Origin: a virus
Taxonomy: Duplodnaviria > Heunggongvirae > Uroviricota > Caudoviricetes
IMG/VR virus record: IMGVR_UViG_2698536435_000009
Reading direction: 5' to 3' (one strand)
Length of the DNA: 7,446 nucleotides
Shown here in pieces: positions 1-7,446 of the stretch (positions within the stretch are counted from its first letter, which is position 1; every line of letters begins with the position of its first letter). Both the position numbers and the translations under genes were made by a program. The notes below the pieces were generated by a model that saw only the letters and a list, made by a program, of their open reading frames with translations, ran no database searches and was not told the origin of the DNA.

Positions 1-354
1 ATCGGGCATTATCTGAACATAAAACACTATCAATAAGTTGGAGTCATTACCCGATATCCTGCTGAGAACATAAACACCCACGGATCGAGGCGTACGCTAT
101 CATGTTGCTGTGCACCGCCCAGTTTATAATTGGCGATGGTATCGATATCCATGTACCACACTGACATGTTTTAAAAAATGCAATAAGACATTGTATCTGA
201 AAGAAAAAACAGGATTTTAAGGCGCTTTTTTATACCGTTTTCCGTGTTTTTAACTGCCTGATTTTATTGAAATCTTTTTTAGTTTTGCAGAAAGGATTTT
301 TTGCTCGATCGCTTTAATTTTATACATTCCTGATAACGGAAATTTTTTTGCCCG

Positions 355-384
355 TTGACAGTTTTTGTTCTCCGGGGCTATATT
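355..384 (+). promoter_or_regulatory. Candidate sigma70 promoter (TTGACA, 18-nt spacer, TATATT) reading rightward toward the Rha-family gene
   Basis: Consensus -35 TTGACA at 355-360 and near-consensus -10 TATATT at 379-384, preceded by a very AT-rich, T-tract-rich region (about 170-354) that could act as an UP element or curved DNA. Sequence pattern only. Confidence 0.4.
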
Positions 385-444
385 CCTCACACAACCGCAA
401 AATCGGTTGTCGGGATTGGCGTCTCGGATAACATCACAACGCAT

Positions 445-466
445 AGCCGCGTTTGCGGTTTTTTTT
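445..466 (+). terminator. Terminator-like hairpin with U8 tract in the leader, about 55-75 nt downstream of the candidate promoter (possible attenuator or end of a short leader RNA)
   Basis: Short GC stem CCGC/GCGG (447-450 with 455-458, extendable by A-U and G-U pairs) with GTTT loop, followed directly by eight T residues (459-466). The stem is short, so this is weak. Confidence 0.3.
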
Positions 467-565
467 GCGTTAAGCATTGCCACATTCGCATTATGGTGGG
501 GCGTGCAGGGGCGGAGAAATCCGCGCCGGGTTTTGTGATGACCGGTTACGCCAACCCTGTACGTC

Positions 566-599
566 TCACCACCTCCCTGATTGGCGTCAGAGGTGGTGA
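566..599 (+). promoter_or_regulatory. Perfect 9-bp stem hairpin (TCACCACCT, 16-nt loop, AGGTGGTGA) immediately upstream of the Rha-family gene ribosome-binding site
   Basis: Perfect inverted repeat read directly from the sequence. The 3' arm is Shine-Dalgarno-like, and the hairpin ends 14 nt before the GGAG at 614-617. Confidence 0.3.
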
Positions 600-626
600 T
601 CATCCAATTAATTGGAGTCATCACAT

Positions 627-1184
627 ATGAATACAGCTATAACTTTTTCTAACGAGTCACCAAAAGTCTTTTTCAAAGATGGTCGCCTGGTTACCACCTC
701 TCAAGCTGTTGCCGACTACTTCGATAAACAACATAAACACGTTTTAGCTAAGATTGACACACTCGACTGCTCTCCCGAATTTACATCAGCCAACTTTTCG
801 GCCGATGTTCAGACTGTCGAAATTGGCAACGGCGCAGAACGTGAATCACGATGCTACCTGATCACAAAAGACGGCTTCATGTTCCTCGTAATGGGATTTA
901 CTGGCAAAAAAGCAGCCAGACTAAAAGAAGCTTACATTGAAAAATTTAACGCAATGGAAGAAGAACTCCACAAACGTCCTCCTGCAGCACAAAACTCCCC
1001 CGCCCCAAATAATGGATGCGCATTACTGATCCACTTCGATAAACACGGTCAGGTCGAGTTCACAGAAAAAGTCCCCGCCGATGCGATGGTATGCACTCTG
1101 GAACGGTTTAAATTTTATCTGGAGCAACATGGGTGGATCGTTGCCCGTAAAGAACAATTGGTGGAAAGGTTGATGCGGTTTTAA
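627..1184 (+). CDS. Rha-family phage regulatory protein (antirepressor-like), 185 aa
   Basis: ORF track 612..1184. The likely true start is ATG 627 with GGAG 9 nt upstream (612 is a TTG). The N-terminal region VTTSQAVADYFDKQHKHVLAKIDTL fits the Phage_pRha signature pattern (S-x-x-V/I-A-x-x-F-x-K-x-H-x-x-V-L-R/K-x-I) from memory. Stop is TAA. Confidence 0.65.
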   Translation: MNTAITFSNESPKVFFKDGRLVTTSQAVADYFDKQHKHVLAKIDTLDCSPEFTSANFSADVQTVEIGNGAERESRCYLITKDGFMFLVMGFTGKKAARLKEAYIEKFNAMEEELHKRPPAAQNSPAPNNGCALLIHFDKHGQVEFTEKVPADAMVCTLERFKFYLEQHGWIVARKEQLVERLMRF

Positions 1185-1310
1185 TGAATGCAAAACCCCG
1201 GATGATCACCGAGGTTAATTTTATCGAGCGTGATTGCCGCTAATCGCCATCGCTCTGATTGAGCGTAAATCATTCAGGTTATTCAGTTCTTCCTTCTGCT
1301 CTCGCTGACG

Positions 1311-1481
1311 TCAATAAATCCCATCATTGCGATCAACCTCATCCTTAACCATTGATGCGAGCAGTTCTTCCAGTTTCTGCGCTGACAGCTTTACCTGGTG
1401 ATCTTCAGCATCTTCCCGGGCTATTGTGGTTCGCGCAGTGGCTGATTTTGCTGACATCACCACAGGGGGCAGACGGACCAT
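1311..1481 (-). CDS. Hypothetical small protein (56 aa, MVRLPPVVMSAKSATARTTIAREDAEDHQVKLSAQKLEELLASMVKDEVDRNDGIY)
   Basis: Part of ORF track 1311..1592, whose listed start is a TTG inside the palindrome module. The internal ATG at 1479-1481 has GGAGG 10 nt upstream. No recognisable family; it could be a gene fragment. Confidence 0.2.
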   Translation of the reverse strand: MVRLPPVVMSAKSATARTTIAREDAEDHQVKLSAQKLEELLASMVKDEVDRNDGIY

Positions 1482-1547
1482 TGAACCATGGCCTCCGGAA
1501 CAAATAAGGGCAAAAATAACAACCACTATCGAAAGCTCACAAACTAA

Positions 1548-1581
1548 CCGCAGCACGTTCCTGCATACGACGTGTCTGCGG
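1548..1581. repeat. Imperfect 11-bp inverted repeat (CCGCAGCACGT ... ACGTGTCTGCGG) at the 3' junction of repeat unit A
   Basis: Read directly from the sequence. It is paralogous to the perfect palindrome at 4656-4688 and sits in a conserved roughly 70-bp module that also supplies the stop codon of the tfa-like gene. Confidence 0.5.
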
Positions 1582-1595
1582 CATAATCCCAATGA

Positions 1596-1865
1596 TTACT
1601 CCCTGACAGGATTTGCAGGCCACTCAATATCAGGTGCAGTTGATGTATCAACACGATTCAACAATACCCGATATTTATTCCATGCCTCCAGCAACGATCT
1701 TTCTTCCTCCGTTGCGATTTCCAGATCTACAGCATCCTGCAGTGGCGCAATATACTCACTAAATTCCTGGATGTAGAACTGTGTGGTGACGGTCTTCCAG
1801 CCATTCGGCTCCTGCTGTATCGAAGCATACTAGGCTATTTCAATATCGCTATGCTGCGGCAGCAT
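1596..1865 (-). pseudogene. Tail fibre assembly (Tfa)-like short protein, copy A, inactivated by an amber codon at codon 12
   Basis: About 90% DNA identity to the intact copy at 3654..3923. Translation gives [11 protein letters not shown] then TAG (plus-strand CTAGG at 1830-1834, where copy B has CCAGG). The rest stays in frame and keeps the conserved Tfa C-terminal motif ([25 protein letters not shown]). Confidence 0.6.
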
Positions 1866-1921
1866 TTAACCCCTTGTAATTCATCGCCATAATTGATTTA
1901 ATTCACAAATAAAACTATAAC

Positions 1922-2373
1922 ATGGTGAAATCAATGAAAACAAACACAGATGATGGGGCTAAAATTTACACACCACTTACCCTAAAGCTTTATGACTGGT
2001 GGGTTTTGGGAGTATCAAATCGGCTTGCATGGGGATGTCCTACAAAGGAACACCTTCTTCCACACTTTCTGGAACATTTAGGTAACAACCATCTGGATAT
2101 TGGTGTTGGAACTGGGTTTTACCTTACTCACGTACCTGAGAGTAGTCTGATATCTTTAATGGATTTGAACGAAGCTAGCCTGAACGCGGCATCTACAAGG
2201 GCTGGGGAATCAAAAATTAAACATAAAATTAGCCATGATGTTTTTGAACCTTATCCCGCGGCGTTACATGGTCAATTTGATTCCATTTCCATGTTTTACC
2301 TTCTTCACTGCCTGCCTGGAAATATATCTACAAAAAGCTGTGTAATACGCAATGCGGCGCAGGCCTTAACTGA
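1922..2373 (+). pseudogene. Class I SAM-dependent methyltransferase, copy A, truncated after codon 150 by the IS110-family element
   Basis: DNA is identical to 3980..4431 of the intact copy and the homology stops abruptly at 2373. The ORF track frame (1922..2461) reads on into the IS, adding an unrelated 29-aa tail. Motif I LDIGVGTGFY is present. Confidence 0.7.
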
Positions 2374-3653
2374 ATCAGGGAACTGGTTATTCTCATTTTT
2401 TATTTGTGACATTGTGGTTGTTGTGCGACAGACATTGCTATTCGGCCCATATCCCAGATAAAACCCGCCAGCTCACGTGCAACAGCAACAATTGTAATAT
2501 TGACATTCTTTCCTTTGGCCTGAAGTTTTCGATACCTCTTACAAAGCCTGAGTTGAGCATCCCATGCTCTGTCAATGACGGGGCGGGGTAAATTTTCCTG
2601 CCTTTTTTGTATTGCCGGACTGATGCGTGCCGGATGACGGTAACTCCACGCTGCCTCGACCAATAGCTTTCTGGCATAGCTGTTTCCGGCTTTGGTAATG
2701 CTGCCCTGATGTCTGCTTCCACCCGATGAATATTCTGATGGCGTGATACCAAACCATGACATCAGTTGTCGTGGATGTTCAAAACGGGTCAGATCACCCA
2801 GTTCAGAAATTAATCCAACCGCAGTAATAAACTGAATCCCTCGCATGGCTTGCAGCGCCTCTACTACCGGATACAGCCTCCATTCGGTAACGGCCTCCTT
2901 CAGGGCGGATTCCAGCCGTTCACATTGTGCCTGCCGATCTTCTATTGTACGACGGTGTTCGTCAAAAGCTAATTGTCGCCAGGGACTTTCGAATGAGTAT
3001 TTGCTGAGCCAGCGTCGGTGTGCAGGGCCCCAATCTGCTCGCCCGACATAATGGACCCCATGAACCAGAAGAAACGATTTCAGACGTTGCCTTGCATGCC
3101 GTAAATCATCGCGGGCAGATGCCCATGCCCGGGCCAAATCCCGGAATGCCTCATCTTCAATGCCGGGTACGTAGACAGCAGAAAGATCTCCTGCACGCAG
3201 TGAACGCACAAGTCTGATGGCATCACGGCGATCGGTTTTAACCCGCTCCCCCGGTTTTTTCGGGATAAGTGAGGGGGCGCAGACCATGCAGTCAAAACCG
3301 GATTTCACCAGCCGACGATAAAGTCCATAACCACAGGGCCCCGCTTCATAAACGATACTGACCTGCGATGACTTTGACCTGAGACGTTTACAAAGATTCT
3401 GAATATCAGTAGGTGATGTGCCAATTTTACCCATCAGTTCAACAGGTTCTGAATTGATAGCATAAGCGACAGTAATCGATTCTTTGTGAACATCTAACCC
3501 GACGTACAATGTGTTATTGTTGTTCATGCTGGCCTCCGTGGTGGAAATACCGGGGTGTAGCAACAGCTCACCCATGCGGCTCTGACAACGATGTTAACCC
3601 GCGTTAAATATCCCACGTTGGCCAGCATCTGTCTCACGGAAAGTCATACTGCC
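2374..3653 (-). mobile_element. IS110-family insertion sequence (about 1.28 kb, boundaries approximate) with no obvious terminal inverted repeats
   Basis: Bounded on the left by the break in methyltransferase homology at 2373/2374 and on the right by the tfa-like copy B (stop at 3654, homology to copy A resuming at 3676). It contains a single DEDD-type transposase ORF. The right boundary is uncertain within 3528-3675. Confidence 0.65.
2400..3527 (-). CDS. IS110-family (DEDD) transposase, about 375 aa
   Basis: ORF track 2400..3575. The preferred start is ATG 3525-3527 (MNNNNTLYVGLDVHK) with GGAGG 7 nt upstream. It has the N-terminal YVGLDVHK motif typical of IS110-family transposases and the C-terminal ITAVGLISELGDLTRFEHPRQLMSWFGITPSEYSSGGSRHQGSITKAGNSYARKLL region. 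Confidence 0.85.
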   Translation of the reverse strand: MNNNNTLYVGLDVHKESITVAYAINSEPVELMGKIGTSPTDIQNLCKRLRSKSSQVSIVYEAGPCGYGLYRRLVKSGFDCMVCAPSLIPKKPGERVKTDRRDAIRLVRSLRAGDLSAVYVPGIEDEAFRDLARAWASARDDLRHARQRLKSFLLVHGVHYVGRADWGPAHRRWLSKYSFESPWRQLAFDEHRRTIEDRQAQCERLESALKEAVTEWRLYPVVEALQAMRGIQFITAVGLISELGDLTRFEHPRQLMSWFGITPSEYSSGGSRHQGSITKAGNSYARKLLVEAAWSYRHPARISPAIQKRQENLPRPVIDRAWDAQLRLCKRYRKLQAKGKNVNITIVAVARELAGFIWDMGRIAMSVAQQPQCHK

Positions 3654-3923
3654 TTACATTGTGTCTGGTTCTTCCGGCCACTCAATATCAGGTGCAGTTG
3701 ATGTATCAACACGGTTCAGCAACACCCGATACTTCTTCCAGGCTTCCAGCAACGAGTTTTCTTCCTCCGTTGCGATCTCCAGATCTACAGCATCCTGAAG
3801 TGGCGCAATATGCTCACTGAATTCCTGGATGTAGAACTGTGTGGTGACGGTCTTCCAGCCATTCGGCTCCTGCTGTATCGAAGCATACCAGGCTATTTCA
3901 ATATCGCTATGCTGCGGCAGCAT
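3654..3923 (-). CDS. Short tail fibre assembly (Tfa)-like protein, 89 aa, intact copy B
   Basis: ORF track 3654..3923. The C-terminal 50 aa ([50 protein letters not shown]) align with the C-terminus of the full-length Tfa at 6583..7110 ([45 protein letters not shown]). The N-terminal 40 aa are unrelated. Confidence 0.55.
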
Positions 3924-3950
3924 TTAACCCCTTGTAATTCATCGCCATAA

Positions 3951-3979
3951 TTGATTTAATTCACAAATAAAACTATAAC
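3951..3979 (+). promoter_or_regulatory. Possible promoter for the methyltransferase gene (TTGATT, 17-nt spacer, TATAAC)
   Basis: Hexamers at 3951-3956 and 3974-3979 in the 56-bp divergent intergenic region. The -10 element abuts ATG 3980, so the real start may be the second ATG at 3992 on a very short leader. Weak, pattern only. Confidence 0.2.
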
Positions 3980-4648
3980 ATGGTGAAATCAATGAAAACA
4001 AACACAGATGATGGGGCTAAAATTTACACACCACTTACCCTAAAGCTTTATGACTGGTGGGTTTTGGGAGTATCAAATCGGCTTGCATGGGGATGTCCTA
4101 CAAAGGAACACCTTCTTCCACACTTTCTGGAACATTTAGGTAACAACCATCTGGATATTGGTGTTGGAACTGGGTTTTACCTTACTCACGTACCTGAGAG
4201 TAGTCTGATATCTTTAATGGATTTGAACGAAGCTAGCCTGAACGCGGCATCTACAAGGGCTGGGGAATCAAAAATTAAACATAAAATTAGCCATGATGTT
4301 TTTGAACCTTATCCCGCGGCGTTACATGGTCAATTTGATTCCATTTCCATGTTTTACCTTCTTCACTGCCTGCCTGGAAATATATCTACAAAAAGCTGTG
4401 TAATACGCAATGCGGCGCAGGCCTTAACTGACGATGGAACTCTATACGGAGCCACAATTCTTGGCGATGGAGTTGTGCACAATAGCTTCGGTCAAAAACT
4501 GATGCGCATTTACAATCAGAAAGGCATCTTTTCAAACACAAAAGATTCCGAAGAAGGCTTAACACATATACTCTCAGAGCATTTCGAGAATGTTAAAACC
4601 AGGGTTCAAGGTACTGTAGTAATGTTTTCCGCTTCAGGGAAAAAATAG
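3980..4648 (+). CDS. Class I SAM-dependent methyltransferase (Rossmann fold), 222 aa, intact copy B
   Basis: ORF track 3980..4648. Motif I LDIGVGTGFYL (hh-D-h-G-x-G-x-G), with an acidic residue after beta-2 (LMDLNEA). No DNA-methyltransferase catalytic motifs (DPPY/NPPY or PC) were seen. An alternative start is ATG 3992. Stop is TAG. Confidence 0.8.
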   Translation: MVKSMKTNTDDGAKIYTPLTLKLYDWWVLGVSNRLAWGCPTKEHLLPHFLEHLGNNHLDIGVGTGFYLTHVPESSLISLMDLNEASLNAASTRAGESKIKHKISHDVFEPYPAALHGQFDSISMFYLLHCLPGNISTKSCVIRNAAQALTDDGTLYGATILGDGVVHNSFGQKLMRIYNQKGIFSNTKDSEEGLTHILSEHFENVKTRVQGTVVMFSASGKK

Positions 4649-4655
4649 CATCCAA

Positions 4656-4688
4656 CCGCAGCACGTTCTTGCTTAAGACGTGCTGCGG
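4656..4688. repeat. Perfect 11-bp inverted repeat (CCGCAGCACGT, 11-nt loop, ACGTGCTGCGG) between the convergent methyltransferase and tfa fragment C
   Basis: Read directly from the sequence. It is GC-rich but has no adjacent U-tract on either strand, so it is not a canonical intrinsic terminator. Confidence 0.5.
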
Positions 4689-4702
4689 CATAATCCCAAT
4701 GA

Positions 4703-4797
4703 TTACTCCCTGACAGGGTTCGTAGGCCACTCAATATCAGGTGCAGTTGATGTATCAACACGGTTCAGCAACACCCGATACTTTTTCTAGGCTTCCA
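4703..4797 (-). pseudogene. Tfa-like C-terminal fragment, copy C, with an amber codon at the conserved Trp position
   Basis: Homologous to 3654-3745 of copy B. It reads EA then TAG then [27 protein letters not shown]. The TAG is plus-strand CTAGG at 4787-4791 where copy B has CCAGG. Homology to tfa ends at 4797. Confidence 0.55.
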
Positions 4798-4798
4798 C

Positions 4799-5029
4799 CA
4801 CCAGCACGACAAGATGCCGCATACAGTGACCCAGTCAGTCCAGTTTTCAGACAACCAGTGCGTCACCTTTTTGAAGGCGCTTTAAAGCACGTTTTAATCC
4901 AGGTCGGCCTGTCCTTGTTCCGCTTAATTTATCTTCAAATATTTGTTCATATCCTGCACAAACAAGAGCGTTTCGTTGCAGGTCTGTATTCTGGTCATTT
5001 GTTGATACCCTTACATAGCCAATCAGCAC
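4799..5029 (-). pseudogene. pin: Pin/Gin/Cin-family serine DNA invertase, N-terminal remnant (about 77 codons) with in-frame stops, fused to tfa fragment C
   Basis: From GTG 5027-5029 (GGAG 8 nt upstream) it reads MLIGYVRVSTNDQNTDLQRNALVCAGYEQIFEDKLSGTRTGRPGLKRALKRLQKGDALVV, matching the Gin/Pin N-terminus including the catalytic Ser in VRVSTNDQ. It then reads TGA-KLD-TGA-LGHCMRHLVVLVVEA against Gin WKLDRLGRSMKHLISLVGEL (Gin sequence from memory). The resolvase C-terminus and the helix-turn-helix are absent. Confidence 0.8.
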
Positions 5030-5083
5030 GCTGAATCTCCCGTCCAAAAGCACAAATCATGCCATGCAGGCCAGAAACCGCCA

Positions 5084-5109
5084 TTATCTAAAACCTCGGT
5101 TTACGAGAA
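5084..5109. other. gix/pix-type 26-bp recombination crossover site for a Gin/Pin-family invertase
   Basis: TTATCTAAAACCTCGGTTTACGAGAA, with the imperfect dyad AAACC-TC-GGTTT, closely resembles the Mu gix and e14 pix sites as I remember them. It lies between the invertase start and the tail-fibre variable segment, and the tail-fibre reading frame opens inside it at 5092. Confidence 0.7.
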
Positions 5110-5868
5110 CTCGGCACAAGCGGGGAGAAAATACCGTTACTCAGTACAGCGAATACCTGGACTAATCGACAAACATTCAGCGGTGGCCTTTCTGGTGAAC
5201 TATCCGGCAATGCTTCTACAGCTGCAAAATTAAAAACTGCCAGGAAAATAAGCAATGTGGCTTTTGATGGTTCCTCCGATATCACATTAAAAGCAAGTCA
5301 TGTTGGTGCGTTTGCCTTAGGGAAAACAGGAAGCACCGTTGCGAATGATAAAGCAGTTGGATGGAACTGGAGTAGCGGAGCCTATAACGCAACTATTAGT
5401 GGTGCATCAACGTTAATTATTCATTTTTATATGGGAGAAGGAAGTTGTCCTGCAGCTCAGTTTCGGATTAATTATAAAAATGGCGGTATTTTTTATCGTT
5501 CAGCCCGTGATGGTTATGGTTTTGAAGCCGACTGGTCCGAATTTTACACCACCAGAAAACCTTCAGCAGGAGATGTTGGTGCACTGCCGTTATCTGGTGG
5601 TCAACTGAATGGTGCACTGGGTATCGGAACATCCAGTGCTCTTGGCGGTAATTCGATTGTATTGGGTGATAATGACACGGGCTTTAAACAAAAAGGCGAT
5701 GGTAATCTGGATGTTTATGCTAATAACGTCCATGTTATGCGCTTTGTCTCCGGAAGCATTCAAAGTAATAAAACCATAAATATTACGGGACGTGTTAATC
5801 CCTCGGATTACGGTAACTTTGATTCCCGCTATGTGAGAGATGTCAGACTTGGCACACGAGTTGTTTAG
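5092..5868 (+). CDS. Tail fibre protein variable C-terminal segment (Sv, silent orientation), with no own start, ending at an in-frame TAG; the frame continues 5872..6018
   Basis: The open frame begins within the crossover site (NLGLRELGTSGEKIPLLSTANTW...) and covers ORF track 5257..5868 (GTG-initiated). It is Gly/Ser-rich and fibre-like. After TAG 5866-5868 the same frame encodes 48 more aa ending [17 protein letters not shown], homologous to the C-terminus of the minus-strand copy ([17 protein letters not shown]). Confidence 0.6.
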   Translation, partial: NLGLRELGTSGEKIPLLSTANTWTNRQTFSGGLSGELSGNASTAAKLKTARKISNVAFDGSSDITLKASHVGAFALGKTGSTVANDKAVGWNWSSGAYNATISGASTLIIHFYMGEGSCPAAQFRINYKNGGIFYRSARDGYGFEADWSEFYTTRKPSAGDVGALPLSGGQLNGALGIGTSSALGGNSIVLGDNDTGFKQKGDGNLDVYANNVHVMRFVSGSIQSNKTINITGRVNPSDYGNFDSRYVRDVRLGTRVV

Positions 5869-6020
5869 ACCATGAAGAAAGGCGTGATGTATGAAAAATC
5901 AGGCCATGTAATCACGGGGCTTGGTATTATCGGTGAAGTCGATGGTGATGATCCGGCAGTATTCAGACCAATACAAAAGTTAATTAACGGAACATGGTAT
6001 AACGTATCGCAGGTATAATC

Positions 6021-6554
6021 ATGCAGCATTTAAAAAACATTGTCGCAGGTAATCCAAAAACCGTTGAACAATACCAGCTAACAAAGAATTTTGATGTTAT
6101 CTGGTTATGGTCCGAAGATGGAAAAAATTGGCATGAGGAATTAAAAAACTTTCAGGAGGATACAATAAAACTGGCTTACACAGTTGAGGGAATAATTATT
6201 GCTATAGACAAGGATGTATCAGCAATTAATCCAGAAGGTTTAAGTGTCGTTGAGTTGCCTGATATTACAGCAAATCGCCGGGCTGATATTTCGGGCAACT
6301 GGATGTTCAAAGATGGTGCGGTGATAAAGCGAACTTATACCGAGGAAGAGCAAAGGCAACAAGCGGAAAATGAAAAGCAGAGCCTGCTGCAGCTCGTCAG
6401 GGATAAAACCCAGCTGTGGGACTCTCAGCTACAGCTGGGCATCATTTCCGATGAGAATAAACAAAAATTAACCGAGTGGATGCTCTATGCGCAGAAGGTT
6501 GAATCCACAGACACCTCCAGCCTGCCAGTAACGTTTCCCGAACAACCAGAATGA
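6021..6554 (+). CDS. Tail fibre assembly protein (Tfa), 177 aa
   Basis: ORF track 6021..6554. ATG follows 2 nt after the TAA of the upstream tail-fibre frame. It is paralogous to the minus-strand Tfa ([22 protein letters not shown] versus [21 protein letters not shown]) and ends with the conserved PEQPE-type terminus. Confidence 0.85.
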
Positions 6555-6557
6555 GAG

Positions 6558-6587
6558 AAGGCCCGCTATCGGGCCTTAATTTTTATT
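6558..6587. terminator. Bidirectional intrinsic terminator between the convergent tfa genes
   Basis: Perfect 8-bp stem AAGGCCCG, CTAT loop, CGGGCCTT (6558-6577), followed by AATTTTTATT on the plus strand, with a T-rich stretch on the other side for the minus strand. Confidence 0.55.
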
Positions 6588-7110
6588 CAGGCTTTTGTGG
6601 CCATTCAGGATTTGCCGTATCCACACGGCTGACCAGAACACTGTAGCGTTCCCATGCTTCCAGTCGTGTGCGTTCCTCGTCTGTTGCCATATTCAGCCTG
6701 ACAGCTCGTTCCAGCGGCTGGATGACTGATTCAGCTTCGGAAAGCAATGCGGCCTTTTGTGATTCGGCCTGTTGTTGCAGTTCCTGTTCTGTATATTCCC
6801 TCTTTACTACTTTACCATCCAGAAACATCCATTTTCCGTTATTGTCTGCGTGACGATTTGCCGTAATATCAGGAACTTCAACTATGCTTAGCCCTTCAGG
6901 ATTAATAGTTGAAACGTCTTTACTGACAGCAACGATGATGTTGTTCTCATCGTAAGCAATTTTTATGGTGTCTGGCTGAAAATTCTTTTGTTCCTCATAC
7001 CAGTTTTTGCCATCTTCGCAAAAGAGCCATACCACGCCCGCTTTTTTAGTTAGCTGGTATTGTTCCGGTGTTTTCGGATTCCCGGCCTTAATATTTTTCA
7101 GGTGCATCAT
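6583..7110 (-). CDS. Tail fibre assembly protein (Tfa), inverted paralogue, about 175 aa
   Basis: ORF track 6583..7146. The preferred start is ATG 7108-7110 ([11 protein letters not shown]) with GGGGAG 8 nt upstream, sitting 1 nt after the TAA of the tail-fibre gene. The C-terminus is [13 protein letters not shown]. Confidence 0.85.
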
Positions 7111-7111
7111 C

Positions 7112-7446
7112 TTAAACACTCCCCACGTTGTACCATATTCCCCCAATCAATTTCTGAATTGGCCTTCTGGCAACAGTGTCGACAATATCATCCGCATTGC
7201 TGTTAATTGCGGCTGTTAAAACATAACCTGACGCATCGCCAAAGCCGTAGTCGCGCCATACGTTTTTATATTCAATGCTGCCAAGACGAATATCCCGAAC
7301 GACATGATTATGCAGCCATGTGCTTAACCAGTTGTTTTCCCACACTGAACCATAAATATCGCCACTAGACGCAACTTGCGCACCACTTCCCAGCGCAAAT
7401 TGAGGTAGCCTGAGTTTAACGGACACTCCTTCCTGAAATAGAATGG
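7112..7446 (-). CDS. Tail fibre protein variable C-terminal segment (expressed orientation), partial, continuing beyond the right edge of the window
   Basis: ORF track 7112..7426 is only GTG-delimited, and the frame stays open to position 7446. The C-terminus ...[63 protein letters not shown] is homologous to the plus-strand silent copy but is not interrupted. Confidence 0.75.

Follow-up and report, generated by a model that had tools for sequence, protein, structure and literature searches.

Probable copying of a truncated insertion sequence and an adjoining gene end from a second prophage into a degraded Shigella sonnei-type prophage

Organisation of the locus and its repeats

The window (the whole 7446-nt stretch of DNA analysed) is a degraded trpA/ompW prophage of a Shigella sonnei-type genome; its features are listed in Table 1, where O-type denotes the local trp/ompW allele and I-type the ipaH-prophage allele. 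Self-comparison recovered the three direct repeats (copies A, B and C) reported by the first-pass annotation. Copy A has a hairpin homologous to that of copy C and to the one at the DinI terminator in the ipaH locus, a tfa' gene identical to that of the S. sonnei single-copy trp/ompW loci and the start of a methyltransferase ORF that continues into insertion sequence (IS) DNA as far as a stop at 2461. In copy B, the tfa' stop codon lies 1 nt from the end of the IS. The methyltransferase appears to be left with one intact copy and one dead 5′ fragment. NCBIfam offered no specific name for the methyltransferase or tfa', and a promoter/terminator scan of 1500–4850 returned nothing above shuffled expectation.

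Table 1. Coordinates of the features discussed in the text
Feature	Position	Strand	Remarks
Hairpin A	1548–1581	.	Imperfect palindrome ccgcagcacg...cgtgtctgcgg, local O-type allele; read from sequence
tfa' copy A	1596–1865	−	O-type, 89 codons, amber 1830–1832; Caudo_TAP C-terminal part
Methyltransferase copy A	1922–2373	+	nt 1–452 only, O-type
Orphan A	2374	.	Illegitimate junction; C in methyltransferase, T in ISSso6
Truncated ISSso6 (IS110/IS1111-type)	2375–3652	−	Element nt 241–1518 of 1518 bp; one end missing
ISSso6 transposase gene	2400–3527	−	Intact
I-type segment, probably imported from ipaH-prophage locus	3653–3889	−	CT core, 21 bp I-type flank, 3′ two-thirds of tfa' copy B
tfa' copy B	3654–3923	−	Intact 89-aa ORF, full-length match to phrog_2341
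Probable homologous crossover interval, I-type to O-type	3890–3978	.	B I-type at 3889, O-type at 3979, 3990, 3999
Methyltransferase copy B	3980–4648	+	Intact, 222 aa, class I SAM-dependent, O-type allele; phrog_2132
Copy C	4656–4797	−	Hairpin 4656–4688 and tfa'' C-terminal fragment 4703–4797 with in-frame amber
pin' serine-invertase remnant	4798–5053	−	~80 N-terminal codons, two in-frame stops; same-frame fusion to tfa''

The tfa'-methyltransferase unit is widespread, being present (at least 80 %) in 3425 of 5426 E. coli genomes. It matches a lambdoid-phage b-region module, seen for instance in Escherichia phages 2G7b and ev243, which carries both genes at 97–98 % identity, in the same divergent orientation and beside tail-fibre genes; the module is single-copy per prophage in the phages and most genomes, whereas it is partly duplicated in the window. 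Four loci from close relatives (L015, L020, L021 and L023; L020 is from S. sonnei 75/02, CP019689) contiguously match window 1–2373 plus 4432–7446 with only one or two mismatches and thus represent the recipient without the added segment. The same single-copy layout occurs in ST131. The ancestral locus would accordingly have held one module, in the order hairpin, tfa', class I SAM methyltransferase, hairpin, tfa'' fragment and pin remnant.

The hairpin of copy C is ~92 % identical to hairpin A, and its tfa part is nearer to B (3 mismatches in 73 bp) than to A (9 mismatches); hairpin and tfa together form 145-bp direct repeats at 1546–1690 and 4654–4797 (~89–90 % identity). An in-frame junction with the invertase remnant had been proposed for this end of the array: a single reading frame is indeed kept across it, but three stop codons interrupt that frame (...GDALVV-stop-KLD-stop-LGHCMRHLVVLVVEA-stop-KKYRVLL...). 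Because copy C and the pin fusion are also found in ST131, where pin' is annotated as a partial recombinase, both are old. Invertible tail-fibre segments are known from the e14 P region, Mu G and P1 C. The serine-invertase gene here likewise adjoins two opposed tail-fibre C-terminus and tfa cassettes, with a gix/cix-like site at ~5084–5109, as in Pin/Gin/Cin-type segments; unlike in those systems, the invertase is a stop-riddled remnant. The invertible segment has the opposite orientation in CP044151.1. This Pin-type segment is context, separate from the duplication.

Copies A (1618–2373) and B (3676–4431) align without gaps over 756 bp at an offset of 2058. Mismatches fall at 1656, 1661, 1665, 1674, 1677, 1683, 1686, 1698, 1699, 1719, 1740, 1754, 1761 and 1831 (A numbering), giving 91.0 % identity over 1618–1761 (13 mismatches in 144 bp), 99.8 % over 1762–2373 and 100 % over 1832–2373 (542 bp). 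The sharp, non-uniform divergence noticed from the letters alone is therefore real and exceeds chance (Fisher p=3.2e-9; change-point statistic reached in 0 of 2000 permutations). The right-hand ~580 bp, described as identical, are nearly so: a single difference right of 1761 (T/C at 1831/3889) produces the amber codon of tfa' copy A. Leftward of 1618/3676, the copies are unrelated for ~40 bp, and B has the IS in place of a hairpin.

A truncated ISSso6 and its source

ISSso6 is an insertion sequence of the IS110/IS1111 type, a kind that uses a guide (seek/bridge) RNA and targets specific sequences. Its transposase is of the DEDD/IS110 type (PF01548 and PF02371) and scores 274 bits, with a cut-off of 140, for NF033542 (IS110 family RNA-guided transposase); it is 99.9 % identical to that of other ISSso6 copies. 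The window's element also shares their CG-CT-TAC site, and its longer non-coding region lies on the downstream side of tnp, a feature of IS1111-type elements (PMC11187229). The lengths of the non-coding regions (265 vs 125 bp), read alongside that publication, suggest a location downstream of tnp for the guide-RNA region; a full-length ISSso6 copy had no match in Rfam. Seven independent ISSso6 copies share a further 240 bp on the side where the window's copy is truncated, so that the latter has lost 240 bp of the downstream non-coding region together with that end. With one end and most of the putative guide-RNA region missing, it is, unlike the full copies, a dead fragment that is presumably immobile.

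The CG-CT-TAC target holds for 7/7 independent copies, the empty site in EIEC reads ttcgCTtacattg, and the 3652/3653 end of the window's element sits in this same site. No CGCTTAC occurs anywhere in the window, nor is the target motif present at the methyltransferase junction, where the site reads ttaactga/cgatgg. A simple insertion would have left both element ends, contiguous flanks and the target motif at the site. Instead, only nt 241–1518 are present, and the flanks are methyltransferase nt 452 on the left and the ipaH-locus tfa' stop region, not methyltransferase nt 453, on the right. For comparison, a genuine insertion into the same methyltransferase is found in ST131 strain H1, in which a complete ISEc23 lies between both gene halves. 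The view that the IS had cut copy A does not hold: because the element is itself truncated at the junction, and because the sequence of its intact end and of the 326 bp that follow is base-identical to a second prophage locus, ISSso6 did not insert into this methyltransferase.

That second locus is an ipaH-prophage paralogue with the order btsS-DinI-IS1-ISSso6-tfa'-MTase-ipaH. The ipaH loci L008–L013 align contiguously to window 2375–4688, with mismatches only at 2937, 3979, 3990, 3999, 4432, 4602 and 4685. Across 2375–3978, which includes the IS/flank junction, the S. sonnei ipaH loci differ at one position (within the IS), and window 3653–3978 (326 bp) has no mismatch to L008–L012. The 3653–3889 segment, which holds all 13+1 differences from copy A, is also 100 % identical to EIEC ipaH loci. 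The donor most likely lay on the same chromosome.

Between the parental loci themselves there are already 13 SNPs within the 144 bp, vs about 7 in 869 bp elsewhere (~0.8 %). Comparison of the sequences suggests that the 91 % vs 100 % step reflects older mosaicism between the paralogues, predating the duplication: their tfa 3′ ends represent distinct alleles within a multi-copy gene family, but the cassette formed by the 5′ end of tfa' and the methyltransferase is nearly identical at every occurrence. A recombination breakpoint does exist, as proposed from the step; it falls in 3890–3978, while the step itself (~1761–1790) marks the border of a block in which the parental loci differed beforehand.

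The joins and the route to the duplication

Every diagnostic site in copy A carries the O-type base, 1921, 1932 and 1941 among them. In copy B, the 14 sites as far as 3889 have the I-type base and the six from 3979 onwards (3990 and 3999 included) the O-type one, so that the phase switches once, within shared homology. The corresponding interval in A is 1832–1920 and extends across the start codon of tfa' as well as the intergenic region. The 2373/2375 join is of a different kind, running from methyltransferase nt 452 through the orphan A to IS nt 241; usable microhomology is absent at the exact point, a shared GGAACT lies 5 nt inside and a CTGA-A-TCAG palindrome is formed. These two, a homologous crossover in 3890–3978 and an illegitimate join of methyltransferase nt 452 to the IS interior, are probably the only new joins.

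We therefore consider it likely that a 2 kb piece from the second prophage, comprising a broken insertion sequence and an adjoining gene end, was copied into the decayed prophage, partly duplicating the tail-fibre-chaperone/methyltransferase module. The DNA added in the source strain is probably a 2058-bp block (2374–4431), which would consist of (i) ISSso6 nt 241–1518, (ii) the DNA flanking the intact ISSso6 end at the ipaH-prophage paralogue, up to 3889, and (iii) a repeat of local sequence, from the 5′ end of tfa' through the intergenic region and methyltransferase nt 1–452. Donor, recipient, SNP phase, truncation of the IS and its canonical target are shown by the comparisons above. Judged from its product, the event may have been one non-reciprocal repair or replication event, in which a broken end in the local methyltransferase would be copied leftwards off the local template, switch template to the ipaH-locus paralogue inside the shared tfa'/intergenic homology, run into the ipaH-locus IS and then be sealed by end-joining without homology. 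Such an event would resemble break-induced replication or SDSA with a template switch, or homology-facilitated illegitimate recombination.

Paralogous lambdoid prophage regions of E. coli and Shigella undergo ectopic recombination and gene conversion. The window shares with such cases two near-identical modules in different prophages of a single genome that exchange sequence, an SNP phase switch in short homology and a mosaic allele; it differs in that DNA was gained (a 2058-bp duplication/insertion) and not replaced, and in having one non-homologous end, which lies within an IS. The definitions of homology-facilitated illegitimate recombination and of break-induced replication with template switching come from experiments, most of which used yeast or incoming DNA. 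Both likewise have one side anchored by homology, the other sealed without it and a duplication adjoining the anchor; here, unlike there, the donor is probably resident and the mechanism is read back from the product.

The same product could also have arisen in several steps, a route from which a single event cannot be told apart by the product alone. Unequal exchange between the 145-bp hairpin and tfa repeats (1546–1690 and 4654–4797) would first duplicate the local unit in tandem; the ipaH locus would then convert the left end of the second unit, bringing in a complete ISSso6; and a deletion of ~0.5 kb would finally remove everything from methyltransferase nt 453 to IS nt 240. The repeats (~89–90 %) are present, each step is a standard event and the end structure is identical to that observed. 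This route nevertheless invokes three events where one suffices, and no intermediate (a tandem duplication, or a local unit with a full-length ISSso6 ahead of it) was seen in the genomes read. As the copies show no divergence (no mismatch between A and B over 542 bp or between B and the donor over 3653–3978, and one within the IS), every step would also have to be very recent. We regard it as unlikely, albeit the strongest competitor to a single event.

The arrangement was absent from 5426 complete E. coli genomes, species-representative genomes and metagenome contigs, and from about 25 + 25 Shigella-type contigs that were read; exact look-up of the two possible junction ORFs returned no record. 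As it was found nowhere else, its reality rests on one assembly; a recent, strain-specific origin is more likely than the alternative of an assembly error. A false join of the trp/ompW and ipaH loci through shared repeats and a multi-copy IS would explain its uniqueness to the window among all collections searched: a multi-copy IS is involved, the two loci are ~99 % identical over roughly 0.9 kb and a chimeric read could have entered the consensus. A repeat-driven misjoin, however, tracks shared sequence, whereas no k-mer is shared at the 2373/2375 join, where there are just a displaced GGAACT and an orphan base. Moreover, the path rejoins local sequence on both sides, with 452 nt of methyltransferase duplicated exactly. 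An artefact is accordingly rather improbable.

Far less credible is the model that the first-pass annotation had favoured, of a prior three-copy array in which ISSso6 inserted into the copy A methyltransferase and gene conversion made the right-hand 580 bp of A and B alike. The window does contain three direct copies and an abrupt change in identity; however, at the point where it should have inserted, the IS is missing 240 bp and one end, the methyltransferase 3′ half does not follow the IS and the CG-CT-TAC target is absent from the site. Relatives carry a single unit and the old C fragment, and the other IS flank and the divergent part of B are base-identical to the ipaH-prophage paralogue, so that the left part of B derives from another locus.

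Off-pathway action of the guide-RNA-directed ISSso6 recombinase on an internal pseudo-end and a methyltransferase pseudo-target, mobilising 779 bp of flanking DNA, is highly improbable: the IS-internal breakpoint lies in ...tcgcCTtcaggg..., loosely like the target cgCTtac, but a CT-core exchange predicts ttaaCTtcaggg where the window has ttaaCTGAAtcaggg, the methyltransferase site is unlike the target and at the right-hand join there is simply a homologous crossover. If true, it would represent natural mobilisation of flanking DNA into a paralogous locus by an IS110/IS1111-type element.

Other candidates were rejected. A circle of IS plus flank entering by one homologous crossover predicts an I-type copy A right of the crossover, where A is O-type at 1921, 1932 and 1941. 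Insertion of ISSso6 in the methyltransferase followed by conversion, with the right crossover in the methyltransferase 3′ part, should have left an entire left IS end and I-type SNPs as far as 4431, and neither is seen. The left end of B cannot derive from copy C by unequal exchange, since the tfa part of C is only 73 bp and B is I-type for at least 144 bp. A CT-core exchange by the recombinase does not fit the junction sequence. Lastly, a pre-existing chimeric I/O allele matches at 100 % in none of the 5426 E. coli genomes (best 99.3–99.4 %).

Implications

The importance of the duplication beyond book-keeping is small: it is ordinary genome scrambling and no new system. For annotation, the IS at this locus is best recorded as truncated and immobile, and 1922–2373 as a dead methyltransferase fragment; the junction 25-mer GGCCTTAACTGAATCAGGGAACTGG could be used to mark the lineage of the source strain. 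A step in identity between repeats can come from parents that were already mosaic, and the recent breakpoint need not coincide with it. The window illustrates cleanly how Shigella genomes are scrambled by paralogous prophage modules and IS copies.

Parental loci of the repeated module

The repeated module is a strain-specific, IS-associated patchwork duplication arising from exchange between two prophage paralogues. The first of these is a degraded prophage that lies directly downstream of trpA and is inserted in ompW in ST131 and S. sonnei-type genomes. In ST131 strains, the counterpart of window 138-5852 takes up 3660 bp, ~2055 bp less, and four S. sonnei-type loci (L015, L020 [S. sonnei 75/02, CP019689], L021 and L023) contiguously match window 1-2373 plus 4432-7446, the only mismatches being those at 219 and 4829 and, in L015, a further one at 7000. 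As these relatives carry a single unit, the window consists of the S. sonnei-type locus and an added 2058-bp block (2374-4431). The short third copy, C, and its fusion to the pin invertase remnant occur in ST131 and all these single-unit S. sonnei-type genomes and are therefore old features.

The second paralogue resides in the same genomes, within a lambdoid prophage flanked by btsS and mlrA, and is ordered DinI, IS1, ISSso6, tfa′ (a tail-fibre chaperone gene fragment), methyltransferase (MTase) and ipaH. These ipaH loci align contiguously to window 2375-4688, differing from it only at 2937, 3979, 3990, 3999, 4432, 4602 and 4685; EIEC strains, whose ipaH locus has no IS, are 100 % identical to window 3653-3860. 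Designating trp/ompW-locus alleles O-type and ipaH-locus alleles I-type, copy A is O-type over its full length; in copy B, all 14 diagnostic sites as far as 3889 are I-type and those at 3979, 3990, 3999, 4432, 4602 and 4685 are O-type, which places the homologous crossover within 3890-3978, an interval covering both the tfa′ start codon (3923) and the intergenic region.

The first-pass annotation reported direct repeats with a sharp A/B identity step, and this observation was confirmed. Pairwise alignment was gapless over 756 bp at offset 2058 (1618-2373 against 3676-4431), with 13 mismatches in 1656-1761, giving 91.0 % identity in the initial 144 bp against 99.8 % in the other 612 bp (Fisher p = 3.2e-9; observed change-point statistic reached in 0/2000 permutations). 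The stretch described as identical has no differences in 1832-2373 and a single mismatch at 1831/3889, which creates an amber codon in copy A tfa′; the 89-aa tfa′ ORF of copy B is intact. The interpretation of the step as a recent breakpoint or conversion was partly right: recombination is apparent in the crossover, but the step at ~1761 is inherited mosaicism between paralogues, since the parental O and I alleles already differ in the 144-bp tfa 3′ block (13 SNPs versus ~7 in the next 869 bp), a pattern repeated when ST131 is compared with EIEC. What the recent event added is confined to the perfect identity right of 1831, where three otherwise-expected I-type SNPs are absent.

The amber site (9910 in L015-L023) is polymorphic among S. 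sonnei-type genomes, with T in L015, L016, L018, L020, L021 and L023 and C in L017 and L019. A stretch of the copy B tfa′ coding sequence (3697-3900, minus strand) scores 129 bits (gathering score 117) against Rfam IS009, a family predicted as an E. coli sRNA candidate, and the equivalent stretch of copy A gave no IS009 report at the gathering score; this 'RNA family' may be nothing more than the widespread tfa′ fragment itself. Most E. coli genomes contain sequences 90-95 % identical to this tfa C-terminal region. The tfa′ 5′ end and the MTase move together as a nearly invariant cassette, of which 3425/5426 E. coli genomes contain at least 80 % at 95-99 % identity and which also occurs in lambdoid phages (e.g. 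2G7b, ev243).

Prophage setting

Features of the window and hairpins of comparison locus L003
Feature	Coordinates	Strand	Remarks
IS1 end	1-51		left edge
ompW remnant			after IS1 end, left part of window
ash gene	355-630		
isrK-like RNA	391-465	+	Rfam, 72 bits, above gathering score
C4-like antisense RNA	489-576	+	Rfam, 76 bits, above gathering score
Rha gene	627-1184		
DUF4376 remnant	1311-1592	-	
Duplicated modules	1546-4797		
Bracketing hairpins	1548-1581; 4656-4688		L003: ~5950-5990; ~7000-7040
Copy C	4656-4688; 4703-4797		hairpin; tfa C-terminal fragment
pin invertase remnant	4798-5053	-	
gix/cix-like site	~5084-5109		
Tail-fibre-tip + tfa cassette	5257-6554	+	
Tail-fibre-tip + tfa cassette	6583-7446	-	opposed to 5257-6554

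The window starts inside an IS1 terminal inverted repeat, in agreement with the call of an IS1 transposase gene immediately to the left in L015 and L020. The IS1 end is absent from ST131, whose similarity begins at 138. Lying immediately upstream of the ash ORF and overlapping with it, before the Rha gene, the isrK/C4 matches represent a regulatory RNA cassette of P1/P7-immI-like or Gifsy-like type that the prophage remnant has retained. The tail-fibre segment right of pin (5080-7400) is reversed in Shigella-type L018 (CP044151.1, 11729-14048) although the local invertase is stop-riddled; hence, the inversion either predates invertase decay or was driven in trans by another invertase. Two copies of one ~35-45-bp hairpin bracket the tfa′-MTase cassette at both trp/ompW and ipaH loci, each followed at the latter by a terminator-like T-rich run, and the hairpin+tfa repeats could favour unequal exchange.

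The truncated ISSso6 copy

The complete ISSso6 element measures 1518 bp and has a CT core at either side, and its insertion sites read CG-CT-TAC in 7/7 independent copies (L024-L029 and L012; window site 3648-3657); the EIEC empty site is ttcgCTtacattg. All seven (six in unrelated contexts plus the ipaH-locus copy) extend 240 bp past the point where the window copy stops, the window retaining IS nt 241-1518 (2375-3652) with an intact transposase gene (2400-3527, NF033542 match). The 3652/3653 junction is the canonical ipaH-locus insertion, one base past the tfa′ stop codon. At 2373/2375, MTase nt 452 is linked to IS nt 241 through an orphan A, and neither a target motif nor microhomology was found there. 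The proposal that the IS had cut copy A therefore did not hold. A small palindrome, CTGA-A-TCAG (2369-2377), is created at this illegitimate join, and GGAACT (2380-2385), 4-5 nt to its right, occurs in both parental sequences; these may be a clue to the alignment of the ends.

As in other IS1111-type elements, the longer non-coding region of ISSso6 (265 bp; no Rfam match) lies downstream of the gene for the transposase. Within such elements this region encodes a seeker/bridge RNA and is needed for circle formation (PMC11187229). The window copy lacks 240 of the 265 bp together with one end and should thus be immobile. In contrast, ISEc23 (IS66 family) in ST131 strain H1 (L002, NZ_CP103710.1, 3785-6993) is a complete IS between both halves of the same MTase; given this independent disruption, the gene is dispensable and repeatedly hit.

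Origin and consequences of the duplication

There are only two new joins, one homologous and one illegitimate, and they are most simply explained by a single non-reciprocal event of repair or replication. In it, a broken end inside the local MTase would have copied from the local template, switched to the ipaH-locus paralogue, run into the IS and been sealed without homology. Each part shows approximately zero divergence from its parent, implying that the event was very recent.

A chimeric artefact is a possible, though less likely, source of the junction, which was found in 0/5426 complete E. coli genomes and was not detected in species-representative genomes, metagenome contigs, the gene-position index or ~50 Shigella-type contigs. 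The same product could also be reached in three steps, by tandem duplication via the 145-bp hairpin+tfa repeats, conversion and then deletion; however, no intermediates were seen among the genomes and loci examined, and we regard this route as rather improbable. Repeat-driven misassembly is unlikely because the partners share no sequence at the novel join. Circle-integration and insertion-then-conversion models predict SNP phases other than those seen.

Exchange of this kind between prophage paralogues is well known, and all components are already annotated in relatives. The outcome of the duplication would be an intact MTase gene with its native upstream region plus an intact tfa′ ORF in copy B, and a dead 150-codon MTase fragment in copy A.
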